The notes: a model not told the origin generated them from the letters alone. A DNA stretch of 64,000 nucleotides from Candidatus Iainarchaeum sp. (GCA_030649735.1 JAUSFL010000044.1:1-64000), one strand, 5' to 3'; shown: positions 94 to 62,919, counted from the stretch's first letter. Made by a program: numbers and translations.

Positions 94-2685
94 ATGGCAA
101 CTGATGAATTTCTGGAGCAAGACACTGTCCTCGGCAGGGAAGCCGAAGACCTGGAAAAGTACGGGAGCAAAGGCTGCGGCTTTTTAGGAAAAGTTGTAAT
201 GAGCGCTGGAGAAAAGCCAGTGCTTGGAAGAAAAATCCTTGTCGACCTGGCAAAGCCGCACTTGGTTTTGATTTGCGGAAAGCGCGGCGGGGGAAAATGC
301 CTTGATGGGGACACTTTAATTACCTTGGAAGACGGTTCTTTGATTGAAATCAAAGAACTGGAGCATGATTCAAGAAACATTCTTTCACTATCACATGATT
401 ACAAAATCAAGGCTTCAGAAAAGACAGAATTTTTTAAGCGGCCTGTTGAAAAAATGCTTGAAATTGTTTTGAAAAGCGGGAAGAAAATCAAATTGACTCC
501 AGAGCATCCTTTGCTTACAATTGACGGGTGGAAGCCTGCTGAAGAATTAAGGGCAGGAAGCAGGATTGCCACTCCCCGAATTCAGCCAGTCTTTGGCAAT
601 GAATTCTTGCGGGAATGCGAAATAAAGCTTTTGGCTTGCTTGCTTGCTGAAGGCCACATTAAGGACAGATGCGTGTGGTTTTCAAACAACGATGAGAAAA
701 TAATCGCCGACTTTAAGCTGGCAGTCCAAGACTTTAACCCGCTGCTGGAAGTGCATACAAGCGCAAAAAACAATCATCGCGTTGTAAATCCTTCAAAAGG
801 AAACACAATAGTCCATGCAGTGAGAAAGAATGGAAAGTTCGCGAAAGGCACAATAATTGCCCCAAAGAATTACTTGCGCGAATGGCTGAAGGAAATTGGG
901 GTTTATGGACTGCTCAGCACTGAAAAATTCATTCCTCAAAAAGCATTAAGGCTGCCAAAGCCAAAGCTCGCGCTATTCTTGAACAGGCTTTTCAGCTGTG
1001 ATGGAAGCATTTACTTCGAATCAAACCGTTATAGAATAAGCTATTCAAGCATTTCAGAAAAGCTAATCCGGCAAATTCAGCACTTGCTTTCAAGGTTTGA
1101 GATAATCTCAAAATTAAGGGAAAAAGAATCAAAGTGCAATGGAAAGGAATTCCCCTGCTTTGAAATTGTCATTGAGGGAAAGAATGCTGAAACATTCCTG
1201 AAAGAAATCGGCTTTTTTGGAATCAAGGAAGAAAAACAAAAGAAAGCATTGCTGGAAATGCAATCCATCAAAAGAAACCCGAACAATGACACGATTCCTA
1301 AAGAAATCTGGAACAATTACAGGCCTAAAAGCTGGGTTGAAGTCGGAAAGCAAATGAATTATGCAATTCCAAAAAGCCTTTGCGAAAGCGTGCATTATGC
1401 GCCTTCAAGGCAAAAGCTCTTGCATATTGCATGGCTTGACTACAACATGCTCATTGAGCAAATGGCAAATTCTGACATTTTCTGGGACGAAATCAGGGAA
1501 TTGAAAGAACTGAACGGAAACTTTGAGGTCTTTGACATTAGCGTTCCGGAAAACCACAATTTTGTAGCAAATGATATTATAGTGCACAATTCCTACTCAA
1601 TGGCAATAATGATTGAAGAGCTTTCAAAGCTTGCGCCATCAATCAAGTCCAGGATTGCAGTCATTGCAATAGACACTGTTGGAATTTTTTGGACTTTGAA
1701 AGTGCCTACAAAGTCTGAAAAGCAAGACTTGTTTGACTGGGGCCTTGAGCCTCAAGGAATTGACGTCAAGGTTTTAGTGCCTAAAGGAAGGCTGCAGTTT
1801 TACAAGGACAAGCAAATTCCGATTGACGGCGCTTTCACCTTGAAAGTTTCAGAACTGGACTTCACTGAATGGCTTTCATTGTTCAAGATTTCCTGGAAAG
1901 ACACTGAAGGCGTTCTATTGACAAGAATCATTGAGTCATTGAAAGAAAGCAAAGGCACTTATTACGGATTGGAAGACATTGTTTCCTCAATTGAAGCAGA
2001 CCAAGAATCAGACAAGAACACGAGGGATGCCTTGAAAAACAGGTTTAAGGCCGCGCAAAGCTGGGGATTGTTTGAAAAGGAAGGAACAAAAATCCGCGAT
2101 TTGGCAAAGCCTGGCGCAATCACAATAATTGACGTGTCATCATACAGGCAGTCCATTGGAATGGAAGGAACAAGGGACATTATTGTCGGACTTGTTGGAA
2201 GGAAATTGTTTGAGGAAAGAATGCTTTTCAGGAAAGAGGAAGAAGTCAAGTTAATGAAGGGATTAAAGCGTGAAAGCGAATTGCCATTGGTTTGGATGCT
2301 GATTGATGAAGCGCACATGTTCATGCCGCGCGATGAAGACAGCATTGCATTGAACACTCTCTTGGAATGGATCAGGGTTGGAAGGCAGCCTGGTTTGAGC
2401 CTAGTGCTTGCAACCCAAAGGCCAAACAAGCTTCACCCTGACGCAATTTCGCAATGCGACTTATTCATTTCCCACAGGATGACTTCACAGCCAGACATTG
2501 CCGCTGTTTCAGAACTTCGCCCGGCTTACTTGCATCAAGAATTTGACAAGTACTATCAAGAAATGCCAAGAAACAAGGGCTACGCGCTGGTTTTGGATGA
2601 CAATACTGAAAAGCTTTGGCTGATTAAAATCCGCCCTCGCTATACCTGGGATGGCGGAACTACAGCAACAGCATTCACTGACTAG
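94..2685 (+). CDS. HerA/FtsK-superfamily (DUF87-like) ATPase interrupted by an intein
   Basis: Walker A GKRGGGK/S split by an intein; Walker B LIDEAH; LVLATQRP motif typical of HerA/VirB4-like ATPases. Confidence 0.85.
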   Translation: MATDEFLEQDTVLGREAEDLEKYGSKGCGFLGKVVMSAGEKPVLGRKILVDLAKPHLVLICGKRGGGKCLDGDTLITLEDGSLIEIKELEHDSRNILSLSHDYKIKASEKTEFFKRPVEKMLEIVLKSGKKIKLTPEHPLLTIDGWKPAEELRAGSRIATPRIQPVFGNEFLRECEIKLLACLLAEGHIKDRCVWFSNNDEKIIADFKLAVQDFNPLLEVHTSAKNNHRVVNPSKGNTIVHAVRKNGKFAKGTIIAPKNYLREWLKEIGVYGLLSTEKFIPQKALRLPKPKLALFLNRLFSCDGSIYFESNRYRISYSSISEKLIRQIQHLLSRFEIISKLREKESKCNGKEFPCFEIVIEGKNAETFLKEIGFFGIKEEKQKKALLEMQSIKRNPNNDTIPKEIWNNYRPKSWVEVGKQMNYAIPKSLCESVHYAPSRQKLLHIAWLDYNMLIEQMANSDIFWDEIRELKELNGNFEVFDISVPENHNFVANDIIVHNSYSMAIMIEELSKLAPSIKSRIAVIAIDTVGIFWTLKVPTKSEKQDLFDWGLEPQGIDVKVLVPKGRLQFYKDKQIPIDGAFTLKVSELDFTEWLSLFKISWKDTEGVLLTRIIESLKESKGTYYGLEDIVSSIEADQESDKNTRDALKNRFKAAQSWGLFEKEGTKIRDLAKPGAITIIDVSSYRQSIGMEGTRDIIVGLVGRKLFEERMLFRKEEEVKLMKGLKRESELPLVWMLIDEAHMFMPRDEDSIALNTLLEWIRVGRQPGLSLVLATQRPNKLHPDAISQCDLFISHRMTSQPDIAAVSELRPAYLHQEFDKYYQEMPRNKGYALVLDDNTEKLWLIKIRPRYTWDGGTTATAFTD
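298..1590 (+). mobile_element. Intein (431 aa) with LAGLIDADG homing endonuclease, inserted in the P-loop
   Basis: Starts CLDGDT, block B LTPEHP, LAGLIDADG-like LLAEGHI and LFSCDGSI, ends HNFVANDIIVHN followed by Ser. Confidence 0.92.
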
Positions 2686-2696
2686 AGGTTAAGATT

Positions 2697-2882
2697 ATGA
2701 AAAAGAAAAAAACAATAAAAGCAAAATCAAGGACTGCAAAAAAGGCAAAAGCGATTTTCAAAGCGCGTTTTGAAGAGCCAATGGTAATTCAGGAAATCCA
2801 AGACAATCCCGCAATTGAAAGAATGGAAAACAGGAACTCGCTTGGCTTTAAGGCAATGCAGTTTTTGGGCCTGAAAATTTAA
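2697..2882 (+). CDS. Small basic hypothetical protein
   Basis: 61-aa ORF with GAGG upstream, directly after the ATPase. Confidence 0.5.
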   Translation: MKKKKTIKAKSRTAKKAKAIFKARFEEPMVIQEIQDNPAIERMENRNSLGFKAMQFLGLKI

Positions 2883-3568
2883 GAGTCCCAAGGCTCGCCG
2901 CCGAGTTGCTTTGCAATTTGGTCTAAGCGGCGGATTTTGGAGTTCTCAGCTTCAATAAAAAGCTCGTTTGGAGTGTTGAACAGGATTTTTATTGTTTCAT
3001 TGTCCAAGCGGCTTTTTCTCAAAAGGCCATTGGCCTGCAAGTAATTCAGCAAGTCTGGAAGTTTTTCCTTGCTGACTCGCAATGACTGGTTTTTTTCCTT
3101 TGTTAACGAGAACTGGTCTATCATGCTGTTCAAGTTGTTCATTCCCAAGAATTGCGGCTTAAAGAATGCCCTTTCCAGATTGTAGGTTTCAAAAGCCTGC
3201 CTGATGAACTCAAAAGCCTTGGCTGATTCTTGAAAGTAGTAATTCCTGTAATCCCGAAAGTTTTCAAAAAACAAGTCCGCGCGGACTCTCGCAGGCTCAA
3301 GTTCCTGCAGTATTTTATTCAATTCAGTAATGCTTCTTTCCAATTCCTTGAATTTTGCAATCAATTCCCGCGAGTTTGACAATTCCTTGAAGTATTGCGT
3401 GAACACAGCGTCCTGGTCGCTTTGCTTTTCAATAAAATCAATCTGGGCAAAGACAACATGCAATGAATTTTCAAGGTCTTTCCTTGCTTCCAAAAGCTTT
3501 TTTGAATTAAGCAATTCCTTGTCCAATTGCCTTAAAGCCTGGCTTAGCTTGAGCTTGTCGACCGGCAT
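2879..3568 (-). CDS. Hypothetical coiled-coil protein
   Basis: 229-aa ORF, heptad-rich, GGGGAG upstream. Confidence 0.7.
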   Translation of the reverse strand: MPVDKLKLSQALRQLDKELLNSKKLLEARKDLENSLHVVFAQIDFIEKQSDQDAVFTQYFKELSNSRELIAKFKELERSITELNKILQELEPARVRADLFFENFRDYRNYYFQESAKAFEFIRQAFETYNLERAFFKPQFLGMNNLNSMIDQFSLTKEKNQSLRVSKEKLPDLLNYLQANGLLRKSRLDNETIKILFNTPNELFIEAENSKIRRLDQIAKQLGGEPWDS

Positions 3569-3638
3569 AATCTCCCCTTTTTTTCTCCCGATAGTATTAC
3601 AAAGCTTGGATTATTTAATCATGCGTTTTTCAAAAAGC

Positions 3639-5726: not shown

Positions 5727-5790
5727 CAGGATGCCTTACTAAAACTTCTAGCATCTGATTTAAAATGAAAACGCTTTTCTAAAGTATCAT

Positions 5791-7293: not shown

Positions 7294-7317
7294 ACAGCCG
7301 CTGTTGTTTGGCAATTT

Positions 7318-10793: not shown

Positions 10794-10812
10794 AAAAACA
10801 CCTCTTGTTTAA

Positions 10813-17759: not shown

Positions 17760-19033
17760 ATGAAAAATCCAGGAACGGCTGCCCTTTAGAGTGGAAATGA
17801 ATCGCGCTTCAAATTATTCTTTCGACCGGAATTCTGGGGTTTGGGAGTGTTTATTAATTTTAGAATGTACTTTTTTGTAATGGCTGAGTCTAGTTTGAGG
17901 GCTTATAAATTCAGATTGTATCCAAATAAATTGCAGATTTTGGGATTGCGTAAGCATCTATGGATATCTAAGAATCTGTGGAATAAATTGCTTGCTTTTT
18001 GTAAGGGCATTTATGCTAAAACTAAAAGGTTTCCGAAAAAGACTGAATTGCAGTTAATGGTGAAGGGTTTTGGTTTGTATTCTCAGACTCAGCAGTGTGT
18101 TTCTCATCGAGTGTTCGAGTCAATCAAGAGGATGTTTACTCTTAAGAAAAAGGGGGTTCATTGTGGTTTTCCAAGGTTTAAGAGTTTTCACAATATGAAG
18201 TCTTTGTATTATCCTCAGAGTGGTTTTAAGCTCGGGAAGAAGTTAAAGGTGACTCCTTTTGGTGAAATTGCAATCAGAAAGCATAGGAAAATTAAGGGAC
18301 GAATTAAGACTTTGAGTTTGAAACTGGAGCCTACTGGCAAGTGGTATGCTGTTTTTACTGTGGAAGTAGAATTAGAGCACAGGGTAAATTGCGGTGGTTT
18401 TGTGGGTGTTGATTTGGGTTTGAAGTCTTTTGCTTCTTTGTCTGATGGTCTGATAATTCAGAATCCGCATCATTTTAAAAAGTACGAAAGCAAACTTTCT
18501 TTTTTGCAGAGGAATTTATCACGATGCAAGAAAGATTCAAGAAACAGAAATAAAGCCAAGCATAAAGTTGCTTTATTGCATGAGAAAGTAGGTAATTCGC
18601 GCAGGGATTTTTTGCATAAGTTGAGTGCTTCTTTAGTTTCAAAATATTCTCTAATAGCATTGGAAAAGCTTAATCCAAAAGAAATGAGTGAACAACAATT
18701 AGGAAAAAGCATTCATGATGCTGGTTGGAGCATGTTCTCGAACATGTTGTGCTACAAGGCTGAAAGTGCTGGTAGCAGAATAGTGTTCGTGAATCCAAAA
18801 GACACAACTAAAGAATGCAGTGAATGCGGATCATTATCCAAGAAAAACTTGCAGGATAGAACACACAATTGCCCAATTTGCGGTTTTTCTCTGGATAGAG
18901 ATTTAAATGCTGCCAAAGTTATACTCAAAAGAGCTACCGCCGGACTTGCGGAATGTAACGCTTGCGGAGTCGGAACAAAAAGTTCCGTCAAGGAAGCAAG
19001 AAACCCAGTCAATTAAGACTGAGGGGATGTCAC
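17760..19033 (+). mobile_element. IS200/IS605-family non-autonomous (IS1341-like) element; left boundary approximate
   Basis: tnpB without tnpA; right-end hairpin CAGTC-AATTAA-GACTG followed by GATGTCAC; composition differs from flanks. Confidence 0.75.
17880..19016 (+). CDS. tnpB: TnpB RNA-guided endonuclease
   Basis: AYKFRLYP HTH; RuvC GVDLGL, ALEKL, DRDLNAA; Zn finger CSECG...CPICG. Confidence 0.93.
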   Translation: MAESSLRAYKFRLYPNKLQILGLRKHLWISKNLWNKLLAFCKGIYAKTKRFPKKTELQLMVKGFGLYSQTQQCVSHRVFESIKRMFTLKKKGVHCGFPRFKSFHNMKSLYYPQSGFKLGKKLKVTPFGEIAIRKHRKIKGRIKTLSLKLEPTGKWYAVFTVEVELEHRVNCGGFVGVDLGLKSFASLSDGLIIQNPHHFKKYESKLSFLQRNLSRCKKDSRNRNKAKHKVALLHEKVGNSRRDFLHKLSASLVSKYSLIALEKLNPKEMSEQQLGKSIHDAGWSMFSNMLCYKAESAGSRIVFVNPKDTTKECSECGSLSKKNLQDRTHNCPICGFSLDRDLNAAKVILKRATAGLAECNACGVGTKSSVKEARNPVN

Positions 19034-19078: not shown

Positions 19079-19792
19079 ATGAATTCAGTCTTGAATTTTT
19101 CCACAATTGAAAAAAAGGAAGTCTTGAAGTTTTTGGAGAACTTTCCAAGCTCTGGCGTGCGTTCAGAGTTTGAGGAATACCGTTGCAAGATTCTGGACTG
19201 TGCTGTAGTGCTTTACAAATCGGGAAAGCTTTTGATTCAAGGAAACTCTGCGGAAAAAGTGAAGGCGACAATTTTGCAAAAGGTTTCTTTCAAGGACGAA
19301 CTAGTGCTTGGAATTGATGAAGTCGGCAGGGGCGAAGGCTTTGGAGCTTTTGTTGTTGCAGGGGTTTTGGGAAAAACAAGCGCTTTGCGCGAGCTAAGGG
19401 ACAGCAAGAAAACCGCAAAGGAAAAAATTCCTGAAAAGGCAAGGCTTGTGAAAAAAAATGCGGAGTGGTTTTTTGTTGAAATTTCGGCGAGTGAAATTGA
19501 CTCTTTAAGAGAGTTAGGCACTACAATGAATCAAATCCAGGCAAACGCAGTGAACAAAATCATCAAGCATTTTGAAGCCGAAAAAGCAAAAGAAAAATTC
19601 CGGATTGTAGTTGACGGCTCGAAAATCAAAGGCATTGACAAGAAAGCAGAATTTTTGACAAAAGCCGACGACCTTGTAGTGCAATGCGCTGCTGCTTCAA
19701 TAATCGCAAAAGACGCAAGAAATAATAGCAAGGATTCTGGAAAAAGAAATACTTGGAAAAGCAAGGAAAATTCAGAGAAAACAAAAAATTAA
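19079..19792 (+). CDS. Ribonuclease HIII-like protein (TBP-like N-domain plus RNase H type 2 domain)
   Basis: VLYKSGKLLIQG N-domain; GIDEVGRG, LRDSKK, VVDG, ADD...AAASIIAK. Confidence 0.75.
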   Translation: MNSVLNFSTIEKKEVLKFLENFPSSGVRSEFEEYRCKILDCAVVLYKSGKLLIQGNSAEKVKATILQKVSFKDELVLGIDEVGRGEGFGAFVVAGVLGKTSALRELRDSKKTAKEKIPEKARLVKKNAEWFFVEISASEIDSLRELGTTMNQIQANAVNKIIKHFEAEKAKEKFRIVVDGSKIKGIDKKAEFLTKADDLVVQCAAASIIAKDARNNSKDSGKRNTWKSKENSEKTKN

Positions 19793-22703: not shown

Positions 22704-22757
22704 TTTTAGTATTCTGGGGGCATTTTTTTAAAAAGTGTAGTGCCTAACAATTATGTC

Positions 22758-22940
22758 ATGTCATTTGTAAGAAGCAAAAGCATCAAAGGCCACACTTACT
22801 ACTACTTGGTTTCAAACAAGCGCGTTAACGGCCGCGTTGTTCAAAAGTTCGAAAAGTATTATGGAAAAAACTCTCCAAGCCCAAGCACTAAAGTGGAAAC
22901 CGTTGATGCTTCAAAGCAAGAGCAAAGCCAGCAGCAATAA
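22758..22940 (+). CDS. Small basic beta-sheet protein, putative DNA-binding
   Basis: MSFVRSKSIKGHTYYYLVSNKRVNGRVVQKFEKYYGK resembles N-terminal modules of IS1634-type transposases; own TATA box. Confidence 0.65.
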   Translation: MSFVRSKSIKGHTYYYLVSNKRVNGRVVQKFEKYYGKNSPSPSTKVETVDASKQEQSQQQ

Positions 22941-41395: not shown

Positions 41396-43285
41396 ATGCC
41401 GAAACTAAAATGCGGGATTGAAGTGCACCAGCAGCTTGATACTGGAAAATTGTTCTGCCGCTGCCCGAGCTTTTTGCGCGATGACAAGCCAGAATTCACT
41501 GTTGAAAGAAAGCTTCGTGCTGTTGCATCTGAAATGGGCGAATTTGACGCTGCAGCCTTGGAAGCAATGCAAAAGAATTATACGTTTGTTTATGAAGGAC
41601 ACCACGAAAACGCATGCCTAACGGACATTGACGAATCCCCGCCAATGCCAGTTGATAAAGAAGCCTTGAGAATAGTCCTAGAAGTTGCATTGCTTGCAAA
41701 ATCAACAGTGCTTGACAAGGTTTTTGTAATGCGAAAGGCAGTTGTTGACGGAAGCAACACTTCAGGCTTCCAAAGAACAGCGCTTGTCAGTACTGGCGGA
41801 AGCCTGAAAATCAATGAAAAAAAAAGCGTGGGCATTCAGACAATTGCGTTGGAAGAGGACGCTTGCAGGCCTTCAAAGAAAGACGAGGAAAACAAGAGAA
41901 TTTACTACCGTCTGGACAGGCTGGGAATTCCATTGATTGAGCTTGCGACAGCGCCAGACATTGAAACTCCAGAAGAGGCAAAAGAGACTGCATTGGCCAT
42001 TGGAAAATTATTGAGGATTACTTGCAAGGCAATGAGGGGCTTGGGGACAATAAGGCAGGACTTGAACATCAGCATTGAAGGCGGAGCAAGAATTGAAATC
42101 AAGGGCTGCCAGGATTTGGAAATGCTTGAAGAGCTTGTAAGGCGGGAAATGCAAAGGCAGGAAAAGCTTTTGGAATTGAAGAAAATTCTTTCTTCAAAAG
42201 CAAAGCCCGAAGATTTTGGAAAATTCGAGATTTTAGAGCTTTCGGAATTTTTCAAGAATTCTGAAAACAAGCTAGTGAAGGGAAAAAAGATTTTTGGGGC
42301 AAGAATTCCAAAAATGAAAGGACTGCTTGGAATTGAATTACAGCCCGGAAGACGGTTTGGAAGCGAATTGTCAGACCAAGTGAAGGCAAAGGCAGGCTTG
42401 AAGGGATTATTGCACAGCGACGAGCTGCCGAATTATGGAATTACTGAAGCAGAGAAGAGTCGCATTGCAGGCAAGCTTGATATTCCTCTTGACGATATAC
42501 TGCTCCCTTATGGCGACGCTTTCATTCTAGTGATTGCAGAAAAAGAAGCAGCGGAGAAAGCATTCAAAGCAATCAGCGCAAGGATTTTGCAGGCTTTCAA
42601 AGGAGTTCCTGAAGAAACCCGCAATGCTTTAGAGAACGGAAACACTGAATATTCGCGCCCTTTGCCCGGAGCTGCTAGAATGTATCCTGAAACCGACATT
42701 GCTTCTTTTGAAACTTCAGAAAAAGAACTCAGCGAGTTGGAGAAAGAGCTGCCTTTATGGCCGCAAGAACGCGTGAGGCTTTACACTGAAAAATTCGGGG
42801 TTTCAAGACAGCTTGCAGAAAAGATGTCATTGGACAATTACGCAATCTTTTTTGAAAGCCTTGCGAAAAAAGGCTTTGATGCAACGCAAGCCGCTGTTTT
42901 GCTTTTGGAGGGATTGACTCAGCTTTCAAGGGAAGGAATCAATGTTGAAAAATTTACGGAGCAACAGATTGAAGAATCATTGCAGCTTTTGAAAGATAAA
43001 AAACTGACCAAAGAGACAGTTCTTGAATTCTTGAAATTACGGAGCAAAAATCAGTTCAAACTTGCAGCGGAATTGCTAAAAGAGTTAGGCACTACAAGTG
43101 TTTCAGAAAAAGAAGTGCAAAAAACAATTGCCGCAATTGTTGCAAAAAGCTCTGCGCTCATTAAGGAAAAAGGCGACCGGGCAATTTCAGCATTGATGGG
43201 TGAGGCAATGAAAGAACTGAAAGGAAAAACTGACGGGGCAACAATCTCGCGAATTCTAAAAGAAGAAATTGCAAAGCTCAAATAA
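41396..43285 (+). CDS. gatE: Glu-tRNA(Gln) amidotransferase subunit E
   Basis: GIEVHQQL, DGSNTSGFQRT, LDRLGIPLIE, RPLPGAARMYPETD. Confidence 0.97.
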   Translation: MPKLKCGIEVHQQLDTGKLFCRCPSFLRDDKPEFTVERKLRAVASEMGEFDAAALEAMQKNYTFVYEGHHENACLTDIDESPPMPVDKEALRIVLEVALLAKSTVLDKVFVMRKAVVDGSNTSGFQRTALVSTGGSLKINEKKSVGIQTIALEEDACRPSKKDEENKRIYYRLDRLGIPLIELATAPDIETPEEAKETALAIGKLLRITCKAMRGLGTIRQDLNISIEGGARIEIKGCQDLEMLEELVRREMQRQEKLLELKKILSSKAKPEDFGKFEILELSEFFKNSENKLVKGKKIFGARIPKMKGLLGIELQPGRRFGSELSDQVKAKAGLKGLLHSDELPNYGITEAEKSRIAGKLDIPLDDILLPYGDAFILVIAEKEAAEKAFKAISARILQAFKGVPEETRNALENGNTEYSRPLPGAARMYPETDIASFETSEKELSELEKELPLWPQERVRLYTEKFGVSRQLAEKMSLDNYAIFFESLAKKGFDATQAAVLLLEGLTQLSREGINVEKFTEQQIEESLQLLKDKKLTKETVLEFLKLRSKNQFKLAAELLKELGTTSVSEKEVQKTIAAIVAKSSALIKEKGDRAISALMGEAMKELKGKTDGATISRILKEEIAKLK

Positions 43286-43317
43286 AAAAGAATTAGGCAC
43301 TACTGAGTTGAAAAACA

Positions 43318-43980
43318 ATGAAGCATTTTCCAATAGCTAAAGAATTGCATACTGATGTTCTGGCTCAAAAGTACGGGCAAATTTCAGCAAAAGTATTAAG
43401 GCATGATGAAAAAGCAAGGGAAGCGCACTTGATTGATTCTAATGGAATTTCAAGAACTTTTGCAATAACGCTCTTTCCCAAAAGCATTCCCAAGCAAATC
43501 AAAAAGATTAATGAACAAATAAAGAATGGCAGTCCAATTGGCGAAACTTTCAGGCAGAACGGCTTTGAAGTCAGAAAGAATGTTTTAAGCGTTAACATAC
43601 TTCAAATTCCAAAATGGCTAAAGAATGATTTTAGAACTGGAAAAGCAAGTGCAAAATACAGGATTTCTGAATTTTACGCAAAAAGCCAAAAATCAAAGCC
43701 AGTAATTTATGGGACAGTCATTGAAATTTACTCCCCGGACTTTAGGGAAGCCAAAATAAACCAAATTGACTTGATTCAATTAAGTGCTCCAACAGAAGCA
43801 TTGAAAAAAGCAGGGTTTTCAATGCAGGAAATCTGGGAAAAAATCGGCGATGCTTCATTAAAATCCCAGCAAGCACTGAGAGAAAAAGCCAACCCAAAAG
43901 CCGGAAAACTAGTCAGAGAAATGGAAAATGAAATAATGGATATTTTATCACTGCCTCACCAAAGCATTAGAAAGAGTTAG
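43318..43980 (+). CDS. Hypothetical protein bracketed by GTTAGGCACTAC motifs
   Basis: 220-aa ORF; stop codon TAG lies inside the motif. Confidence 0.7.
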   Translation: MKHFPIAKELHTDVLAQKYGQISAKVLRHDEKAREAHLIDSNGISRTFAITLFPKSIPKQIKKINEQIKNGSPIGETFRQNGFEVRKNVLSVNILQIPKWLKNDFRTGKASAKYRISEFYAKSQKSKPVIYGTVIEIYSPDFREAKINQIDLIQLSAPTEALKKAGFSMQEIWEKIGDASLKSQQALREKANPKAGKLVREMENEIMDILSLPHQSIRKS

Positions 43981-44006
43981 GCACTATTTTTTTAGAAATC
44001 AAGAGC

Positions 44007-44444
44007 TTACACAAATGCGGAAATCAAAACAATCAAATACCACAAAGCCAAGTTTGTAATGCTTAGCATGCCTAATTGCTTTTTTGCTTTAAAGAATTCT
44101 TCAGAAGGCTTTTCGCCGGGCTTTGCAAGCTTTTGCATTTTTTTAACCCTTAAAAAAATCAAGGCTCCAATTGCAACTATCAAAACCACCAAAGCATGCT
44201 TTATTAGTAGTAAATTCGTGTCAAGCGGCCATTTTACAAGGCTTGTTACTGCAATTCCGGAAATTATGAGCAAAACCAAGCCAGCCCAGATTAGTTTTGA
44301 CAGCGCGGGAATTATTTTCATCAAGCTTGCGGCAACTTCCGGATTTTTCTCCGCCTTCATTGAAATAATTGCGGCTGCTGTTGCTCCGCCAACTCCCCAG
44401 GCCAATCCAATAAAGTGCAGAAAATTGAAAATTTCTAAAAGCAT
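44007..44444 (-). CDS. Four-TM membrane protein (CopD/DUF2269-like)
   Basis: LHFIGLAWGVGG, LLIISG, IKHAL. Confidence 0.65.
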   Translation of the reverse strand: MLLEIFNFLHFIGLAWGVGGATAAAIISMKAEKNPEVAASLMKIIPALSKLIWAGLVLLIISGIAVTSLVKWPLDTNLLLIKHALVVLIVAIGALIFLRVKKMQKLAKPGEKPSEEFFKAKKQLGMLSITNLALWYLIVLISAFV

Positions 44445-44522
44445 GCTTTGATTAAAAGCGCTTTAGTTTTTAATTTTTCCTGCCAAAAAGCCCGAAAAAG
44501 CGGGATAAAAAGAAAATAAAAT

Positions 44523-44547
44523 GAAAAGCCGCAAAAAACGGCTTTTC
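44523..44547. terminator. Hairpin with T/A runs, probable terminator of 44563..45039
   Basis: GAAAAGCCG-caaaaaa-CGGCTTTTC. Confidence 0.5.
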
Positions 44548-44562
44548 AAAAACTGGTTCAAA

Positions 44563-45039
44563 TCATTTTTTCTTGAACACGTTCAAGGCAAGGAATGCTC
44601 CAATAACTCCCAAGATTGCGCCAATTATTATTGCCACAATTATGCCGATTATTAGGCCGACTATTCCAATTGCAGCTCCAAGGCCTGCAGCTGCTGGGTT
44701 TGAGCCAATGCCTGCCGAAATCAATGGCGCAACAAGCAATAACTGCAAAATTCCGCCAATAATTCCGGAAATTACTGCAACAACTGCTCCTGCAACAGCT
44801 CCTGAAACATATGCTTCAGCGGCTGGCGCTTTCTTTGCGGCTTCAAGGCCTGCCCAAATTACAACTACCCAAATCAGCAATCCAATAAGTCCTGCCAATC
44901 CAATCGAGCCAACTGCGGCAAGCGGGTTTCCTCCAGCGCCAGCCCAGGCAGCGTAAGTAATTGCAATCACGACTAATTCCAAAACAATGGCCAGTATTAT
45001 TTGAGTTTTAACCGCCATTGCTGTTTTCATTATATCCAT
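44563..45039 (-). CDS. Gly/Ala/Ile-rich four-TM membrane protein
   Basis: Hydrophobic ORF with GGAGGG upstream. Confidence 0.7.
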   Translation of the reverse strand: MDIMKTAMAVKTQIILAIVLELVVIAITYAAWAGAGGNPLAAVGSIGLAGLIGLLIWVVVIWAGLEAAKKAPAAEAYVSGAVAGAVVAVISGIIGGILQLLLVAPLISAGIGSNPAAAGLGAAIGIVGLIIGIIVAIIIGAILGVIGAFLALNVFKKK

Positions 45040-45157
45040 TAAAATAATCCCTCCATTAATGTAATAGAAATAAACAACGAGCCCGGCTTAATAAAACTTT
45101 GCGGGTTAAAAAACAAGGGTTTTTTTCAATATTTTAAACCATTCTGCCGGCCATTCT

Positions 45158-45255
45158 CAGTTATCAAATATTCAAAATTACGGAGCAAAAACTCTTTCAA
45201 ACTTGCAGCGGAAATTCTAAAAGAGTTAGGCACTACAATTGTTTCAGAAAAAAAG
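45158..45255 (+). repeat. Diverged copy of gatE segment 43017..43115 containing GTTAGGCACTACA
   Basis: About 15 mismatches over about 97 nt; reads KLRSKNSFKLAAEILKELGTT versus KLRSKNQFKLAAELLKELGTT. Confidence 0.9.
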
Positions 45256-45260
45256 CCAAA

Positions 45261-45602
45261 TTATAAGAATTTTACAAACTTGTTGTTTTCATTGACTAAA
45301 ATCTTTTTTGCTTTCACTGGCTTGCTTGAAAGCTCAAAGCCCATTATTATCACGCGTTCTCCGGCTTTTATCAAGTGCGCTGCAGCTCCATTAATGCAAA
45401 CAATTCCCGAACCTTCATTTCCGGGCATTATGTAAGTTTCAAGCCTTACCCCAGAACTCTTGCTAACAACCAGTGCTTTCTCCCCACTCAAGAAACCGGC
45501 TTTTTTCATAAGGGCAGAGTCAATGGTAATGCTTCCCTCATACTCTACATTAGCTTCTGTTACAGTCGCATCATGAATTTTAGACCTTAGCACCCAGCGC
45601 AT
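45261..45602 (-). CDS. panD: Pyruvoyl-dependent aspartate 1-decarboxylase
   Basis: SKIH.ATVTEA...YEG/SITID, RLETY, CINGAAA. Confidence 0.93.
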   Translation of the reverse strand: MRWVLRSKIHDATVTEANVEYEGSITIDSALMKKAGFLSGEKALVVSKSSGVRLETYIMPGNEGSGIVCINGAAAHLIKAGERVIIMGFELSSKPVKAKKILVNENNKFVKFL

Positions 45603-45675
45603 TCCAAAACACCAATTATTTTCTTAAAGTATTTTGTTGCAATTAGTATTTAAGAATTTAAGTAAAAGTTAGGCA

Positions 45676-46863
45676 CTACAAATTTGAAATTTTAACTACT
45701 CCCCATTCAAGAATTTCTCGCGAATCATAATATAGTGGTTTCCTACCATAATAAATCCAACCAGTTATTTTGTAAATGTGGTTTTTTGGAAGCCGCAGTT
45801 TTTCAAGTATTCTATCTGCGCTCAATCCAGTACTTCGTAATTGAATAGTTTTTTCATAAGTTTCCCATTCTTTCTTTAATCCACTGGAGTTTTTTAGAAA
45901 TGTTTCAACTGCCTTAACAAATTTGGCTTGCTTTTTCTCCGCATATTTGAAAGGAATTTCCTGAAATAATTTGACAATATTTGGGCTTCGTCCATCAATA
46001 TAGAATGAGATTTTCTGTGAAAGAGTTCCATCCTTTCTTAATGTCCTATTTTTCTCTCCAGCAATTGGTGAAGAAGTAACTCCAAACTCAGCCAACAAGG
46101 ATTTTACTTGTTCATGAAATTTTATTAGCTCATTTACCTTTGACTCAACTTTATGCAATCCAAAAGTTGCAGAAGTAAATGCATTCTTTGCTCTAATAAA
46201 AGGGCATTGCAACTCGTTGCCAAAAAGAACACTCAGAAAAGCGCGTTTTATCTCCTTATCAGAATTCATTACCCAATCAGGAACTTTTGTTGAAGAAGAA
46301 ACTTTATCCCCAACAGGAGCGCCCGCCAAGAATAATAATCTTGCAAGCGGAGAACTATTAACATTTAAACGATAATCACCCCCTTTTGGATAAGTTCGAT
46401 ATAGTACCCTATTTTTTATTTTTCTTATTTCTGACTCCGAAGAATTAATTGCCAAATGCGGTTCGATTTTGTATTGCTTGAACAATAATGATGCAATCAA
46501 CTCCAAGTCTTCTTTCTCGCCAAAAAGGGAAAAGGCGCCCAAATGTTTCATTAAATGGCCATCACCAAATAGAAATGCAGATAGCTCTGTAAAAAGAAGA
46601 AAACTTTGAGTATCTTCTACTTTTAATGGAATCAATCTAATTGACTTAAGATAATTCAAGGCTCTAATTGGAAAAGGCACTCTTTTGTCAGATAACCAAC
46701 TGTATATTGTCCTTTCAGGATGCTTTATCAAGCGCGATATTTCAGAAATAGTCTTTATTGAATTTTGCAATTCTTTAGCTTGAATATACTTTTCTGCCAG
46801 GTTTAATTGCCGGTCTCCAAAAGAAGCAAGAAATTTATTCTCATCAACAATTATTTCTTCCAT
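45676..46863 (-). CDS. Free-standing LAGLIDADG endonuclease-like protein with HTH-like ends
   Basis: LSAFLFGDGHL and FLSVLFGNEL; GAPVGDK...VPDWV; no intein termini; AT-rich. Confidence 0.75.
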   Translation of the reverse strand: MEEIIVDENKFLASFGDRQLNLAEKYIQAKELQNSIKTISEISRLIKHPERTIYSWLSDKRVPFPIRALNYLKSIRLIPLKVEDTQSFLLFTELSAFLFGDGHLMKHLGAFSLFGEKEDLELIASLLFKQYKIEPHLAINSSESEIRKIKNRVLYRTYPKGGDYRLNVNSSPLARLLFLAGAPVGDKVSSSTKVPDWVMNSDKEIKRAFLSVLFGNELQCPFIRAKNAFTSATFGLHKVESKVNELIKFHEQVKSLLAEFGVTSSPIAGEKNRTLRKDGTLSQKISFYIDGRSPNIVKLFQEIPFKYAEKKQAKFVKAVETFLKNSSGLKKEWETYEKTIQLRSTGLSADRILEKLRLPKNHIYKITGWIYYGRKPLYYDSREILEWGVVKISNL

Positions 46864-48143: not shown

Positions 48144-49229
48144 TCATGAATTCCTGACATACTCCAACGACAAAATGCCGTTAAGTTTTGGGGTTTCTGG
48201 ATTCCTAATATTTTCCCCTTTAGGCGTATCAGTGCTACCCTTCAGCACATCTCTGTCTGTGCTGAATCGAGATATGCCTTGGCGATACAAACTTGCAATA
48301 TTGAATCCTGCGTTTGCATCGGCATTCTCAACCACCCCACATTTCGTGCAGTGGAATTCTTTTAGTTTTCTGTTCCTTGCTTCTATATGACCGCACTTAC
48401 TACACCTTTGCGAAGTATATTGCGGTTCAACATAGGCAACAGGCACTCCGAACTTTTTGGATTTGTATTCTATCATTTTTTGCAACTGATAAAAACTCCA
48501 AGAGTTTATGGAATACCTCTGCTTTCTTCTCATTTTTGTAGTCTTTCGAATATCTTTCAATTCTTCAAGTACTATAATTGCTTTGCTATTTTGTGCTTCA
48601 TCAATCAATTTCTTGCTTATCTGGTGATTAATATTCCTAATGATTCTGCTCTCTCTATCTTTGATTTTCTTAACAAGAGAATGCTTGCCATTCTTTTGAA
48701 GTGACCGTCTTATGTTTTTATATTTTGTGTGAATATGATTGCACTTCTTACCTAGCTTAAGCACTTTTCCAGTATCAATATTTGAAGCTACAAGGACATG
48801 CTTAATTGTATTTCTATCCACACCAATCACTTGCTTTGGTTTGTATTGACAAGGTTCTTCGTATGAATATGACACATAAGCAAAAGTCTCCCCAATTTCA
48901 ACTTGGTTTATCTTCTTAAATGAAATATTAAAGCGAATTGGAAGTGTTAATTTCAGACAAGGTATTATTATCTCTTTTTTTGTGAATCTAATTCCTTGAG
49001 AAGGAACAGTCAGTTTTACTGAATTTACAGTTTTGATTGTTTTATTTTTGGCATACTTTCGGAGGATTTGGTTGGCAATCACTGATTTCAAGCCAATATG
49101 TTTTACATCTTTGCTTGATAATGTTCTCTCTCTTATTGCATACTCAGCTATTTTCTTTGCCAAGCTAAGTTCTCTGCTAAAGTTCTGATAATGCTTTATT
49201 TTGAGAGTCAATATCAAAAAAGACCACAA
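48144..49229 (-). CDS. tnpB: TnpB RNA-guided endonuclease (second, distinct clade)
   Basis: RuvC GVDRN, VLEEL, NADANAG; Zn finger YTSQRCSKCG...CTKCG. Confidence 0.9.
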   Translation of the reverse strand: MWSFLILTLKIKHYQNFSRELSLAKKIAEYAIRERTLSSKDVKHIGLKSVIANQILRKYAKNKTIKTVNSVKLTVPSQGIRFTKKEIIIPCLKLTLPIRFNISFKKINQVEIGETFAYVSYSYEEPCQYKPKQVIGVDRNTIKHVLVASNIDTGKVLKLGKKCNHIHTKYKNIRRSLQKNGKHSLVKKIKDRESRIIRNINHQISKKLIDEAQNSKAIIVLEELKDIRKTTKMRRKQRYSINSWSFYQLQKMIEYKSKKFGVPVAYVEPQYTSQRCSKCGHIEARNRKLKEFHCTKCGVVENADANAGFNIASLYRQGISRFSTDRDVLKGSTDTPKGENIRNPETPKLNGILSLEYVRNS

Positions 49230-49338: not shown

Positions 49339-50136
49339 CTACCAGTTTACTCTTTTACTCATAAATTCATAAAACAAGTAAATTTGGGCAAAGCCTTTAT
49401 ACTCGTGCCATAATTCTTCTGCTTTTTGCAAGTACTGGTCGTTTTTTGCTTCTTTTCCTTGAAAGTAAACTTTGCTCATTGCGCGCTTCATCCAAACATC
49501 CAATGGAAATCCATTAGTGTCGCCAAAGCCATAAAGCAGAATGCATTCTGCAATTTTTTCTCCAATGCCTGGGCAGGAAAGCAGGAATTCTTTCAGTTCT
49601 GCAGAGTTCTTGAATTTCAAATCTCCCCTTTGCAAGACCTTCAGTGTAGTGCCTAACAAGTACTGGTCGCGAAAACCGCACTTTACTTTTCGAAAATCCT
49701 GCACTGTGCATTTTGCAAAGTCTTCAGGCATTGGAAATTCATGCAGGCCTTCCACTTTTGCCCCGTAAGCATTCATTAATTCCTGCACGTTCATTCTGAT
49801 TATTGGAATGCTCCTGTTCGAGCTTAGCAGGAAGCAGACTATTGTTTCCCACAAGTCGCTTTGCGTCAAGCGCAGGCCTTTGTAATCCTTGACTGCCTGC
49901 TTCATGAAAGAGTCTGTTGAAATTTTCGCAAAAACCATTTTGTAATTGTCATTGCTCCGTAAAGTGAACTCTGCAAACTTTGCATTATTGGTTTTCAGTT
50001 TTCCTTGCTCTTGCATTAACTCGACAATTTTTCCATTCCGGGCCCTTTTGAAAACTCCGCGGTCTTCCTGCCAGACAAACTGTGGAGTTTGCCCTGAAAG
50101 CATTGTCAAACCAAGATTCAATGACTTTGGCAGCAT
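49339..50136 (-). CDS. 8-oxoguanine DNA glycosylase (OGG1/HhH-GPD family)
   Basis: TMLSGQ.PQF.W, CPGIGEKIAECILLYG, FPLDVW, GFAQIYLF. Confidence 0.88.
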   Translation of the reverse strand: MLPKSLNLGLTMLSGQTPQFVWQEDRGVFKRARNGKIVELMQEQGKLKTNNAKFAEFTLRSNDNYKMVFAKISTDSFMKQAVKDYKGLRLTQSDLWETIVCFLLSSNRSIPIIRMNVQELMNAYGAKVEGLHEFPMPEDFAKCTVQDFRKVKCGFRDQYLLGTTLKVLQRGDLKFKNSAELKEFLLSCPGIGEKIAECILLYGFGDTNGFPLDVWMKRAMSKVYFQGKEAKNDQYLQKAEELWHEYKGFAQIYLFYEFMSKRVNW

Positions 50137-50170
50137 ATTATTTTTAAGGCTTGCAAAGCAAATTAATGTT

Positions 50171-50683
50171 ATGGGTGGAAAGAAGGCATTGCTTGTTATT
50201 GCTTCACGCAATTTTCGCGATGAGGAATTGTTTGACACTCAAGCCGAGCTTGAGAAATCTGGAGTTCAATGCGTTATTGCCTCGACTTCGCTTTCAGAGG
50301 CTGTCGGAATGCTTGGCGGAAAAGCAAGGCCGGCTTTGACAATTGACAAAATAAATGCTGAAGATTTTGACGCTTTGGTTTTTGTCGGGGGCTCTGGCTC
50401 TGAAACTTTTTTCAAGAACCGCTTTGCCTTGGGATTGTGCCAAAAATTCGCAAATGCCGGAAAAGTCACTGCGGCAATTTGCATTGCTCCGATGGTTTTG
50501 CTTAATGCAGGAGTTCTTAAAGGAAAGAAAGCGACTATTTCCAAGGGAATTTCTGAAGAATTCAAGGAAAAAGGGGCAAATTACTCGGGCAATCCAGTGG
50601 AAGTTGACGGCTTGATTGTCACAGCGCAAGGCCCTAAGGACGCGAAAGAGTTTGGAAAAAGAATCGCGGCTTTTTTGAAGTAA
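50171..50683 (+). CDS. DJ-1/PfpI-family protein
   Basis: FRDEE, FVGGSG, AAICIAP. Confidence 0.93.
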   Translation: MGGKKALLVIASRNFRDEELFDTQAELEKSGVQCVIASTSLSEAVGMLGGKARPALTIDKINAEDFDALVFVGGSGSETFFKNRFALGLCQKFANAGKVTAAICIAPMVLLNAGVLKGKKATISKGISEEFKEKGANYSGNPVEVDGLIVTAQGPKDAKEFGKRIAAFLK

Positions 50684-51290: not shown

Positions 51291-52562
51291 ATGGAAGAAA
51301 ACGTTTTCGACCCGCATGGTTTGACCAAGCGAATGGAAGCAGAATTACGAAAGATTTCCTTGCTTCCAGAACCCAATAAATCTCTAATTCTGGATTTTTT
51401 GCACAATTACAGGTACAAAAAGAAGTCTTTGAGCTTGGCCAGGCGTTGTCGTTTGGCAAGCCAGTTTCACTTTTTTGCCAAGCTTTCAGGAAAGCCTTTG
51501 AATCCTTTTAGAGAACAGGATGCTCGAAGCTTGGTTGGCTTGATTGAAAGGTATGAGAATTCTCGAAAGCCTTATTCTTTGCATACTTGGAAAGAAATCG
51601 TAAAGAATGTTAAGATTTGGGTTAAATGGGTTAATCCTGAAGACTACCCTAACGTTTTGTTGAAGTGTAAAGATGTTTTAACAGTCCAAAACCCTTACTC
51701 AGACCCTAAAAGAAAAGCCAGTCTTGAGGATTTCTTGATTACTGACGAAACCTTCCTGAAGCTTTTGAATGTAGCCAAAGACCAACAAAAAGCCATTCTA
51801 GCCATTGGATTTGGCTGCGGTTCAAGAACTGGAGAGCTCTTGGGTTTGCGTAGAAAAGACTTGAAATTCAATCCTGACGGAACAATATCGCTTTCTTTTC
51901 TTGAAAGCAAAACTTTTCCCCGAGAAAATATTTTATTAAGTCCAGACTTATCCTGTTACGTGCGAGAATGATTTGAAAAAAGCCCGTTGAAAAGCCAGAA
52001 TGACTTCTTTTTCTGCACTGTCAACGGCCCGCCAAAACCACTATCTCAAAACGCTCTTGGAATAATCCTAAAACGCCTGGCTGTCAAAGCCGGCTTAGGA
52101 AAATGGAAGAAAGTCAAGTCAAGCAATGGCATTTGGTATTCTCACTATCAAGGCCAAAGAATCTATTTCACTAAATTCCGGCGTTCTGCAGCAACTTGGG
52201 CTTTAAAAAACTTGAAAAGCCACGCCTTAGCTGGCAAAAGAATCTGGGGTAACGAAGCTTCAAGCATGATTAAAATTTACTCTGGATTAGTTTCTGAAGA
52301 CGCTAACGAAGCTTACAGGGAAGCTTTAGGTTTAGCACAACCAACTCAAGTCGAAAACATTCTGAAGCCTAAAACCTGCTTCAAATGCCATACAATGCTT
52401 TCTCCAACTCAAAGCCTTTGCCCAAACTGTAAAATAGAAACAGACACTTCAAAATTAATAGATACTCAATTACTGAAAGAAGCAGAAATGACAGCCTTAA
52501 GGGAAGAAATGAAAATGCTCCAAACAGCACTAGCGCAAATAACCCTAAAAATGCAAAGTTAG
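51291..52562 (+). pseudogene. Tyrosine recombinase/integrase with C-terminal Zn ribbon, in-frame TGA at 51969-51971
   Basis: Two ORFs in the same frame; GSRTGELL (R), SKT (K), KFRRSAAT (R), KIYS (Y), CFKC...CPNC. Confidence 0.85.
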
Positions 52563-52822
52563 GCACTACGCCGGAACTAAAAAAGCAATAAAAAAGCTTC
52601 AAAAGCTAAGAAAAACAGTAAAAATAATGATTGCGCCAATCAAAGCAAAATAATGTTACAAAAAAAGGAATACGAGCTGAAAGAAACAACCTATTGGTTG
52701 AAAGGAGGGAAAATCCAGCTAAAAATTTCCCCCGAATAAAAGATTATTCTTAGAGTGTGGATCCAAATCAATAAGCTCGCTCATTAAATCTTCAATTTTT
52801 TTGACAATCATTTTCAAGATTA

Positions 52823-55786: not shown

Positions 55787-55807
55787 CTCCGCTAATGGGA
55801 TGATAAT

Positions 55808-57160: not shown

Positions 57161-57182
57161 GATTGGGAAAAAGCGTGATTGA

Positions 57183-61651: not shown

Positions 61652-62070
61652 AAACATGGAAATAAGGTTGTTACTGAATAAAAAAATAGCACATTCTAAT
61701 GCCAAAATTAGTGTATAATGATTTGATAATTATTATAGTGGGTCTTTTAGATATCTTCTTTCAAAATAATCAATTAATTGTAAATTACAAGTTTAGAACT
61801 ATGATTACATTTGTTTATGATAAAAAATTGTTAAAACATCAACTGAAAATCCAAAATATGATTAATTAAGTCTGGATTGAACTTCGAATTTCTTGTATAT
61901 TCTATGGGTTTTTAAGTGTAGGAATTGCCTTGCTTTTAGCTGATTTCTAGTAATCCTTGTTGTTTTTTCTATTAATTAGACTAGATTAGCTTTATTCTTG
62001 GCAAAAAGAAATAATTAAGCTTATTTGCTGGTTTTAGTTTTTGCAGTTTCTTTTTTTCTGGGTTATTTTT

Positions 62071-62344
62071 TGTAGTGCCTATGTCTCTATTTTTGCTTTT
62101 GTTTTCGGGACATTTACAAGACATTTTTTGGGTTTGCGGGACAATTAATTGGCAATTTTATAGTTGATTTTTTTGATTCGTATTTTTTTTGCCGACATTT
62201 TCCCGACATTTTTTCACTTTTCCCGACACCCATTTTGTAGTGCCTAATGCTGCTTTCAATTTTCCTATTTTCTGCTTAGTGCCATTTTTGTGCCATTTTT
62301 TTACTTTGCGTGTCATTCAAAGCTTGCATCTTCTGTAGTGCCTA
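62071..62344. repeat. Cluster of short direct repeats (three TGTAGTGCCTA; GACATTT, CCGACA and GTGCCATTTTT repeats)
   Basis: Read directly in a T-rich non-coding region. Confidence 0.8.
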
Positions 62345-62519
62345 TGCTCCGCTTTATTCACTTGCTTGCCAGTAACTGAGTTAACTCATGCTTAAATAAT
62401 TCAATGTAGAAGGTATGTCTAGAGAGTTTTCAAAACTGCTTTATAAAAGCAGAAGTAAGGACTTCTCATGAGAAACCCGACAACGACAATAAGAAGGCCG
62501 GAACAGAAATTAATGCAAG

Positions 62520-62708
62520 GTGAAGAAATTGGAACTACAGCAAACTCTTACAGTTAGGAAGAATGAGCAAATGACGGCAAAGCAAGTGGCCTTGTTGCTG
62601 GCGAGAAAGACAGATTTTGAGTTAAAGCGAGAGTTTCCGGTTTTTTGGGAATTGCTTGCAATAAAAAGCAAAAGTTGGAAAAGTGTTGATGATGAGTTTG
62701 AATATTGA
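62520..62708 (+). CDS. Small hypothetical protein
   Basis: 62-aa ORF overlapping the next ORF. Confidence 0.45.
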   Translation: MKKLELQQTLTVRKNEQMTAKQVALLLARKTDFELKREFPVFWELLAIKSKSWKSVDDEFEY

Positions 62709-62919
62709 GTTGAGAATACCAAAGCAAGTAGTGCCTAACTGTTTTCTCTGCCTCTCAAACAAAAGAAAACGCAAAAAAATGGTGTTCCGTACAACCCAAA
62801 GAAGATGGGTTTGCAAAGAATGCCTTGACGCGCTTGGAGAAAACCAAATACAACAAATGCTTGAAAAAATTCCTTTGGCTGAAGATATAATATTCAGAAA
62901 GCCAAGCATCAATTTTTAG
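62692..62919 (+). CDS. Small zinc-finger protein
   Basis: CFLC...WVCKEC. Confidence 0.55.
   Translation: MSLNIELRIPKQVVPNCFLCLSNKRKRKKMVFRTTQRRWVCKECLDALGENQIQQMLEKIPLAEDIIFRKPSINF

Follow-up and report, generated by a model that had tools for sequence, protein, structure and literature searches.

Why should a short, precisely spelled DNA word recur both within and between the genes of an archaeon? The question arises from a stretch of 64,000 nucleotides (nt) from Candidatus Iainarchaeum sp. (JAUSFL010000044.1:1-64000; the window), in which a first-pass annotation had noticed a repeated 13-mer, GTTAGGCACTACA, and proposed it as a DNA-uptake-like tag, a recombination crossover site or the site of a chromosome-organizing protein. 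The window is contig C44 of a genome of 1.28 Mb in 51 contigs with a GC content of 41.6% (G000), and we have analyzed it together with 40 relatives, giving a comparison set of 41 genomes of the order in which 32 families are sampled. DNA has been gained or lost exactly at the 3′ edge of the motif, each inserted piece ends in another motif copy, and the constraint on the word acts on DNA and not on protein. We tentatively interpret the motif, with the consensus ARAGTTAGGCACTACA, as the crossover or insertion site of a putative sequence-specific activity that breaks and joins DNA, and we give this interpretation slightly less than an even chance of being correct.

The motif is a sharp word and not an artifact

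Six exact copies of the 13-mer occur in the window (Table 1), against a mean of 0.00 in 100 dinucleotide-preserving shuffles of it, and a 9-mer core, TAGGCACTA, occurs 14 times; in the shuffled sequences it averaged 0.10 and never exceeded 1. Every place given for these copies in the first-pass annotation is correct. Its count of 14 as a signal stands for the 13-mers and for most of the cores, but probably not for the copy at 1775, which lacks the flanking letters and may be a chance match. Over the whole of G000 there are 55 cores, about one per 23 kb, and AGTTAGGCACTAC, with 28 copies, is the commonest 13-mer of the genome that is not of low complexity. The logo of the 55 sites gives a consensus of approximately ARAGTTAGGCACTACA, a non-palindromic conserved unit of 13–16 nt, and no longer conserved element was found around the copies in that logo. 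The word is sharply defined: the 12-mer has 32 exact copies, and there are 13 sites at one mismatch and 67 at two. As controls, six shuffled 12-mers had 0–1 exact copies each. Thus, the enrichment noticed in the window holds genome-wide.

Copies that trace to assembly or adapter sequence, a possibility against which the first-pass annotation had cautioned, can be rejected because independent contigs carry the motif. A Logan contig of run X1, an independent assembly of what may be the source run of the window, covers 42900-45800 with no differences, and contigs of two further studies also carry the motif, making three runs in all. Moreover, the genes continue through the motif without loss of frame and have homology to either side of it. 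The suggestion that the signal is undescribed has likewise survived our literature searches, which did not extend to supplementary files: topic searches returned no description of such a motif, and exact-string searching with the 10-mer in either orientation found nothing but unrelated primers and one promoter table.

DNA is gained and lost at the 3′ edge of the motif

In three genes shared by G000 and its sister genome G001, the only indels start right after the motif, and all are in frame and free of stop codons. The Dph2-like gene of G001 has 47 additional amino acids directly after the motif, and these contain two more in-frame motif copies. The decarboxylase of G001 is longer by 10 amino acids, corresponding to one extra module, again right after the motif. 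For the PUA-methyltransferase it is G000 that has the longer gene, with 38 additional amino acids directly behind the motif.

Larger pieces have the same boundaries. A contig of strain X3, from another study and ~85–90% identical to the window (873 nt, depth 5.65), aligns with 43064-43289 and then with 43991-44488. The 701 nt between are skipped and replaced by 16 letters that constitute a single motif copy, and the gene of 220 amino acids lying there in the window is missing. This gene (43318-43980) is present in two of the 41 genomes, G000 and G011 (41% identity), and in no other member of its own family. Divergence from the window sets in right after the copy at 45227 in two X3 contigs, and two contigs diverge immediately ahead of the copy at 45668. 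An X2 contig joins 43033 to 45175, dropping the 2141 nt that lie between direct repeats of ~85 nt centered on motifs. Elsewhere in G000, the closest relative of a motif-flanked gene (C23:22663-23520) belongs to a different family (G026, 51% identity), compared with 25–28% within its own. Of the three roles originally offered for the word, a recombination crossover site fits best because the boundaries of indels and cassettes coincide with the motif.

The constraint acts on DNA

Within genes the motif is read as the peptide LGTT. The first-pass annotation had reported this in three real genes, those for RNase H (RNase HII), GatE and OGG, always encoded as TTA GGC ACT ACA, and had taken it to mean selection on the DNA; the three genes bear this out, and the wider comparison supports it. 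There are 24 LGTT peptides in the G000 proteome, where the comparable tetrapeptides LGTS, LGST and LGVT occur 5–7 times each. Thirteen of the 24 are encoded by TTAGGCACTAC and four more by one-mismatch variants, whereas the share of TTA-GGC-ACT-ACA predicted from codon usage is 0.008. Seven sites have orthologous counterparts in G000 and G001; the inner 10-mer is identical in all seven, and the 12-mers match at 80 of 84 positions. By comparison, the 90 nt upstream are identical at 374 of 630 positions (ungapped), and flanking third codon positions at 100 of 210 (48%). Eight in-gene sites of G001 have an orthologous position in G000, and seven of these hold the motif there, the eighth reading KELPTT. 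The shared codons of the 13 peptides, and the invariance of the 10-mer where third positions have diverged, therefore place the constraint at the level of DNA. A cause at the level of the LGTT peptide is rejected by the identical codons, and by non-coding arrays whose spacings are not multiples of three.

It had also been asked whether LGTT in gatE is specific to the lineage. The LGTT of G000 aligns with MSLG in the motif-free G004, with no gaps in the whole alignment, and GatE of G007 has DLGTT at the same place, encoded by four different codons.

Placement and orientation of the copies

Gene calls for G000 were rough open reading frames (ORFs) ranked by hexamer score, and cover 92.9% of the genome. 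On this basis 19 of the 55 cores lie in genes on the coding strand in the LGTT frame, one is in another coding-strand frame and four are antisense within genes. Six provide the TAG stop of a gene and two a stop on the opposite strand, one lies over a gene start, and 22 are intergenic. Thirty-one of the 55 are thus at or between gene ends, while only ~7% of G000 is intergenic. Copies within genes survive only in the E-L-G-T-T frame, or at gene ends with TAG as the stop.

The copies are clumped. In 10-kb bins of G000 the mean is 0.46 and the variance 1.29 (variance-to-mean ratio 2.8), and 85 of 110 bins are empty. Neighboring copies less than 5 kb apart have the same orientation in 24 cases and opposite orientations in 8, the ratio being 16:4 for intergenic and boundary copies only. 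In the relatives, adjacent copies on one contig are co-oriented 35:2, counted by hand. Single genes lie between two co-oriented copies irrespective of the direction of the gene, at 43294/43978 and 45227/45670 in the window, and at 6101/6840, 22603/23518 and 23518/24447 in a glycosyltransferase-rich region of C23. For at least eight intergenic copies in G000, the word is directed toward the 3′ end of the adjacent gene. Base pairing of the motif with 16S rRNA or tRNAs extends at most to runs of 8–9 bases, at or below the shuffle level, and no Rfam family save a tRNA was found at motif arrays.

Relatives, arrays and composite repeats

Presence of the word in relatives was confirmed. It occurs in numbers in all four genomes of the family, with 32 exact 12-mers in G000, 39 in G001, 11 in G002 and 8 in G003. 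Outside the family there are three in G007 and one in G028, and none in the 35 other genomes of the order; a reversed control word gave 0–1 in the same genomes. The motif is therefore found in numbers in one of the 32 sampled families.

G001 has arrays of copies with spacings of 21–23 and 44–45 nt. Within genes the spacings are 21 and 45 nt, preserving the frame, and outside genes they are 22, 23 and 44 nt. The copies often alternate with a second word, GCGGAGCA, located 19–20 nt upstream of the core. Some of the copies in G002 and G003 lie between GCGGAGC and GCTCCGC, ~19 nt away on either side; the left box is found at 17 of 99 sites and the right box at 6 of 99. A non-coding copy ahead of one small gene (an ORF of 66 amino acids) has been kept in G000, G002 and G003.

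Some larger arrangements accompany the motif. A composite repeat specific to G001 follows it at four loci (L002, L004, L007 and L036) and includes a small hairpin, in which the stem varies (GCCTT/AAGGC versus CGCGG/CCGCG) and the loop TTTCGC is constant, a compensatory pattern. In both G000 and G001, A-rich DNA that is free of genes but contains motifs lies behind a tRNA gene (C49:1522-2044 in G000, locus L009, two copies; L001:1507-2150 in G001, six copies). These stretches contain a conserved AT-rich inverted element, and behind them comes a near-universal gene of 140 amino acids with a further motif copy in its N-terminus.

The motif in other phyla and in a virus

A collection of species-representative genomes was scanned for AGTTAGGCACTACA, giving matches in at least 120 stretches. 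Among the matches listed, 66 stretches are single matches in assorted bacteria; ~4,400 single matches are expected by chance in the 596 Gb. Again among the matches listed, 26 stretches are from 11 assemblies titled Altiarchaeota or Altiarchaeales, 11 are from five assemblies titled Micrarchaeota or Micrarchaeia, and 17 are from other or unclassified archaea. The flanks in other archaea are once more aaaAGT...CA, at GC contents ranging from 33% to 60%.

A viral contig of 45.5 kb (IMGVR_UViG_3300009320_000030) has 18 cores in the 29 kb examined, co-oriented 16:0. Eleven of the 18 are in the LGTT frame of long ORFs, nine have an ATG no more than 12 nt downstream, and some copies are tandem doublets of 15 nt. 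ORFs of this contig match ParB_N (66 bits), a DNA methylase, ASCH and LAGLIDADG_1 above the cut-offs, and terminase and portal families below them. The word is shared without shared genes, since tblastx of the viral contig against G000 and against the archaeal loci gave no matches at E ≤ 1e-8. The first-pass annotation had regarded the motif as a feature of one DPANN lineage, and in this it erred in both directions: one family of 32 has it in numbers, yet it is present in Altiarchaeota, Micrarchaeota and a viral contig. It looks like an undescribed recombination signal common to distant archaeal phyla and a virus.

An activity that might use the motif

We propose that ARAGTTAGGCACTACA could act in cis as a DNA junction site. 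Gain and loss of DNA at the 3′ edge builds co-oriented arrays, and DNA lying between two copies behaves as a cassette, from modules of 21–45 nt up to whole genes. That the copies stay letter-perfect across diverged genomes would be due either to selection or to the junction process converting them again and again; this process may also convert near-matches such as KELPTT and ELGVL into exact copies with no change of length. A dedicated enzyme would be required, for which a XerA-type tyrosine recombinase and a free-standing LAGLIDADG endonuclease are candidates.

Several points weigh against such an activity. Modules of 21–45 nt are too short for the synapsis of a classical recombinase or for circular intermediates. 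Without an outgroup most of the indels cannot be polarized, and deletion between short direct repeats gives the same borders. The X2 joint is a single contig of 372 nt with a depth of 3.9, and is weak evidence. Solitary copies within genes have arisen by substitution: there is no gap at the motif in gatE compared with G004, nor in three further alignments that set genes of G002 or G003 against G000. Lineage-specific solitary copies without change of length include ELGTT in G003 where G000 has ELGVL, and DELGTT in G002 where G000 has AIDGAK; nor does length change where G002 has ELGTT and G000 has QLGTT in a one-mismatch spelling. Simple insertion therefore fails to account for the solitary copies. 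Finally, the conserved copies in housekeeping genes suggest that the host benefits or that there is drive, and a site serving for attachment alone leaves this unexplained.

To these is added that no enzyme has been tied to the motif. G000 has five tyrosine-recombinase matches. One is XerA (C49:3751-4725; NF040815, 273.5 bits against a cut-off of 220), with orthologues at 56–76% identity in all five relatives examined. In the G000 gene, an N-terminal extension that is not conserved carries two motif copies, and the TAG of a motif forms the end of the gene, but this is so in G000 only; the orthologues of G001, G002, G003, G007 and G028 (0 of 5) have no motif nearby, and a XerA flanked by its own sites is rejected as a general rule. 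Against the integron integrase model TIGR02249 the best score in G000 is 208.8 bits, below the cut-off of 265, and is that of XerA itself; two other integrases score 37 and 18 bits. Cas1, Y1_Tnp and Rep_trans were not found in G000, nor was Y2_Tnp in a search that had no positive control. LAGLIDADG hits in G000 number 16–19, about eight of them in free-standing ORFs of 230–340 amino acids; their number is rejected as a correlate, G000 having 16 and the motif-free G004, G011, G012 and G034 having 16–23. The whole order is rich in LAGLIDADG domains.

Comparison with known systems

Integrons have a core-site consensus GTTRRRY at cassette borders, with the sites co-oriented, and their attC sites are imperfect inverted repeats of 57–141 bp whose outer boxes are reverse complements. 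The likeness is that single genes are bounded by short co-oriented sites, that strains differ in having or lacking such a cassette, and that the empty place keeps one site. The start of the motif, GTTAGGC, also fits GTTRRRY, but a degenerate match of seven letters may be chance. In contrast to integrons, however, G000 has no IntI-type integrase above the cut-off, there is no reverse-complement partner near motif sites save in two pairs on C45, the bounded genes lie in both orientations, and copies occur in frame in housekeeping genes too. With neither IntI nor attC structure, an integron is not supported.

A Xer/dif site consists of two inverted arms of ~11 bp around a spacer of 6–8 bp, with one functional site per chromosome, conserved among relatives. 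G000 has the XerA orthologue, and at C45:38433-38462 two 12-nt motif arms are inverted around a 6-nt spacer, facing inward, which is the core-site architecture of a tyrosine recombinase. A second pair on C45 (39180-39208) is arranged 10-5-10 and faces outward. Apart from these pairs the motif copies are single arms; the inverted pair was found in none of five relatives with up to three mismatches allowed, and the XerA genes of the relatives have no flanking motif. In an excerpt from PMC11840125, TAA(N6-8)TTA is named as the most conserved feature of archaeal dif sites, and the C45 inverted pair lacks it. A dif site is thus not supported either. The C45 pairs bracket an ORF of 221 amino acids with a signal-peptide-like start, and a gene for a TrmB-family regulator adjoins.

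In T4-type phages, PeSL repeats flank mobile gene cassettes, and "boundary sequences" figure in the modular evolution of phages. Like these, the motif is a short junction word that lies between viral genes and on either side of single accessory genes, and modules would be shuffled if its copies recombined. Unlike them it lies in frame in cellular housekeeping genes and extends across phyla without shared genes, and no promoter or terminator structure is evident at it.

Other explanations of the motif

The sharp conservation within genes, and copies made by substitution, leave room for a binding site, a selfish repeat or a viral signal. A protein that organizes or regulates the chromosome might bind the word in the manner of Ter, matS, parS or iterons, the sites being kept where tolerated and the indels at their edges a by-product, for example of fork stalling and template switching. 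Tens of sharp, non-palindromic copies per genome (32 exact 12-mers) are what this would predict, and the array spacings of 21–23 and 44–45 nt correspond to about two and four helical turns. Exact sites that arise by substitution and then stay conserved, the non-coding copy kept before the same small gene in three genomes, and the ParB_N protein of the viral contig are also in accord with it. An architectural site would not, however, be expected to bound gene-sized cassettes that are missing in a related strain, nor to be so clumped as to leave most 10-kb bins empty. No candidate protein matches the patchy distribution of the motif: two genes beside conserved sites, that of 140 amino acids (C49:2044-2466) and the 66-amino-acid ORF at 22740-22940, were considered as binders and rejected as widespread, being present in 37 and 17 of the 41 genomes; no relation of the latter to integrases was found. 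Overall we regard a binding site as unlikely. An expression signal (promoter, leader or processing site) at the gene starts or junctions of a virus or mobile element, with the cellular copies as relics of exchange, is improbable in our view. The 16:0 orientation of the viral cores and the ATG close behind nine of the 18 would fit, as would core 43294 of the window, 15 nt ahead of an ATG. In addition, a table in section 9 of PMC11617373 lists TAGGCACTACAATA, which comprises the core letters of the motif plus a common flank, as the promoter of the T7-like RNA polymerase of Escherichia phage ECBP5. We treat the likeness as coincidence because no such polymerase was found in G000, the genome that this search covered, the 29 kb of the viral contig lying outside it: tblastn with T7 RNA polymerase gave a best E-value of 3, and PF00940 had no matches, but control genomes gave none either. 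Furthermore, at least eight intergenic copies face the 3′ end of their neighbor, complementarity to 16S rRNA and tRNAs is no better than in shuffles, and at E ≤ 1e-8 the virus has no genes in common with either G000 or the archaeal loci.

That the motif is a miniature repeat of a purely selfish kind, inserted in frame and serving only its own spread, has a similarly low probability. It would resemble a miniature inverted-repeat transposable element (MITE) or the Rickettsia palindromic elements (RPEs), selfish palindromic units of 100–150 nt that are translated inside genes. The motif shares with RPEs that repeat-derived modules are translated in frame in conserved enzymes and housekeeping genes, always in one frame, and the preference for intergenic places agrees with such an origin, as might the inverted GCGGAGC and GCTCCGC boxes at fixed distances from a minority of copies (17 and 6 of 99 sites). 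Yet only 13–16 nt are conserved and these are non-palindromic, with no longer element at most copies. Each copy of a MITE or RPE is an insertion when compared with orthologues that lack it; here the multi-copy modules of G001 are insertions, but the solitary copies are substitutions and show no change of length. Identity of the 10-mer at seven of seven sites, against 48% at third positions, is unlike a decaying relic, and neither a Y1 nor a Y2 transposase was found in G000, the Y2 search lacking a positive control. Very improbable, finally, is a tag for DNA uptake or self-recognition spread by biased uptake and recombination, as are the DNA uptake sequences (DUS) of Neisseria and the uptake signal sequences (USS) of Pasteurellaceae, and the corresponding proposal of the first-pass annotation fits poorly. 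DUS and USS number hundreds to thousands of copies, evenly spread at ~1 per kb. Like these and like Chi, the motif is short and oriented, is over-represented in particular lineages and can be accommodated in coding frames. But with one core per 23 kb it is ~20 times sparser, it is clumped (variance-to-mean ratio 2.8, 85 of 110 bins empty), and neither local co-orientation nor tandem arrays nor precise indel borders are features of uptake signals. It would not mark "self," since the same word is found in several phyla and a virus. Exact copies do arise by substitution in permissive frames and between genes, as an excerpt from PMC2817400 describes for USS.

The interpretation as a crossover or insertion site can be carried further, to a version that we consider unlikely. 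The motif could be the target of a horizontally spreading, sequence-specific enzyme that cuts or joins DNA, such as a free-standing protein akin to a homing endonuclease, so that DNA between two copies would be transferable to any single copy. This would amount to integron-like exchange without an integrase, across archaeal phyla and viruses, with the enzyme's own target written and maintained in housekeeping genes by repair-driven conversion. If the interpretation holds, these groundwater archaea of small genome and at least one virus would share a "plug" for moving genes and protein segments, and there would be gene flow between phyla that searches for integrases and transposases cannot see. 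It would also be a rare case of a mobile-DNA signal written into essential genes and conserved there. The 16-letter motif provides a probe for fishing for the enzyme, and for mapping exchangeable cassettes in metagenomes of unculturable organisms.

Features of the window

Table 1. Motif copies and associated features in the window
Feature	Position	Strand	Remarks
Motif in the RNase HII gene (19079-19792; Pfam 1.9e-19)	19513..19525	+	LGTT at residue 146
Motif just upstream of, and antisense to, the 66-amino-acid ORF 22740-22940	22736..22748	-	Position also occupied in G002 and G003
Motif in gatE (41396-43285; 3.9e-52)	43084..43096	+	LGTT at residue 564
Left ~85-nt direct repeat centered on motif, a piece of gatE	43033..43118	+	X2 contig joins 43033 to 45175
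Core, 8 nt past the gatE stop and 15 nt before ORF 43318-43980	43294..43302	+	Left border of the 0.7-kb cassette
Cassette gene, 220 amino acids	43318..43980	+	No Pfam/NCBIfam family; not in the X3 strain or its own family
Core whose TAG is the stop of ORF 43318-43980	43978..43986	+	Right border of the cassette
Right ~85-nt direct repeat	45176..45260	+	~88-90% identical to 43033-43118
Motif between ORF 44563-45039(-) and panD 45261-45602(-)	45225..45237	+	Two X3 contigs diverge right behind
Motif whose reverse-complement TAG is the stop of gene 45676-46863(-)	45668..45680	+	Two X3 contigs diverge right before
Motif in the OGG-like (OGG/HhH-GPD) glycosylase gene 49339-50238(-)	49645..49657	-	LGTT; same site in G001
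Core whose TAG is the stop of ORF 51987-52562, second half of the broken integrase-like gene by tRNA-Gln	52560..52568	+	
Four co-oriented cores at 62073, 62238, 62336 and 62729	62073..62737	-	Three within gene-free 61706-62621
Core 9-mer only, flanking letters absent, antisense in ORF 94-2685	1775..1783	-	Probably a chance match

In the region from 51153 to ~63000, a tRNA-Gln gene has behind it an integrase-like gene that a single TGA interrupts (ORFs 51291-51971 and 51987-52562), and beyond this gene the GC content drops to 35–37% as far as ~63000. The tRNA-Gln, the broken integrase-like gene and the fall in GC suggest that this region is an integrated element; no tRNA-Gln-derived att repeat marking the far end of the 51–63 kb island was found. 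Within it the gene-free 916 nt at 61706-62621 have short words containing G and C repeated among runs of A (the TGTCGGGAAAA and ATGTCCCG types), and the suspected island may have an origin or a regulatory region there.

Two TnpB-like ORFs are present in the window, at 17841-19016(+) and 48144-49229(-), with matches to the Cas12f1-like_TNB zinc ribbon of 81.5 and 85.3 bits. Their ends are unlike each other and unlike the motif, and the word is rejected as a guide or target of TnpB. At the other end of the window, ORF 94-2685(+) contains a LAGLIDADG_3 domain at 967-1212 and probably holds an intein.

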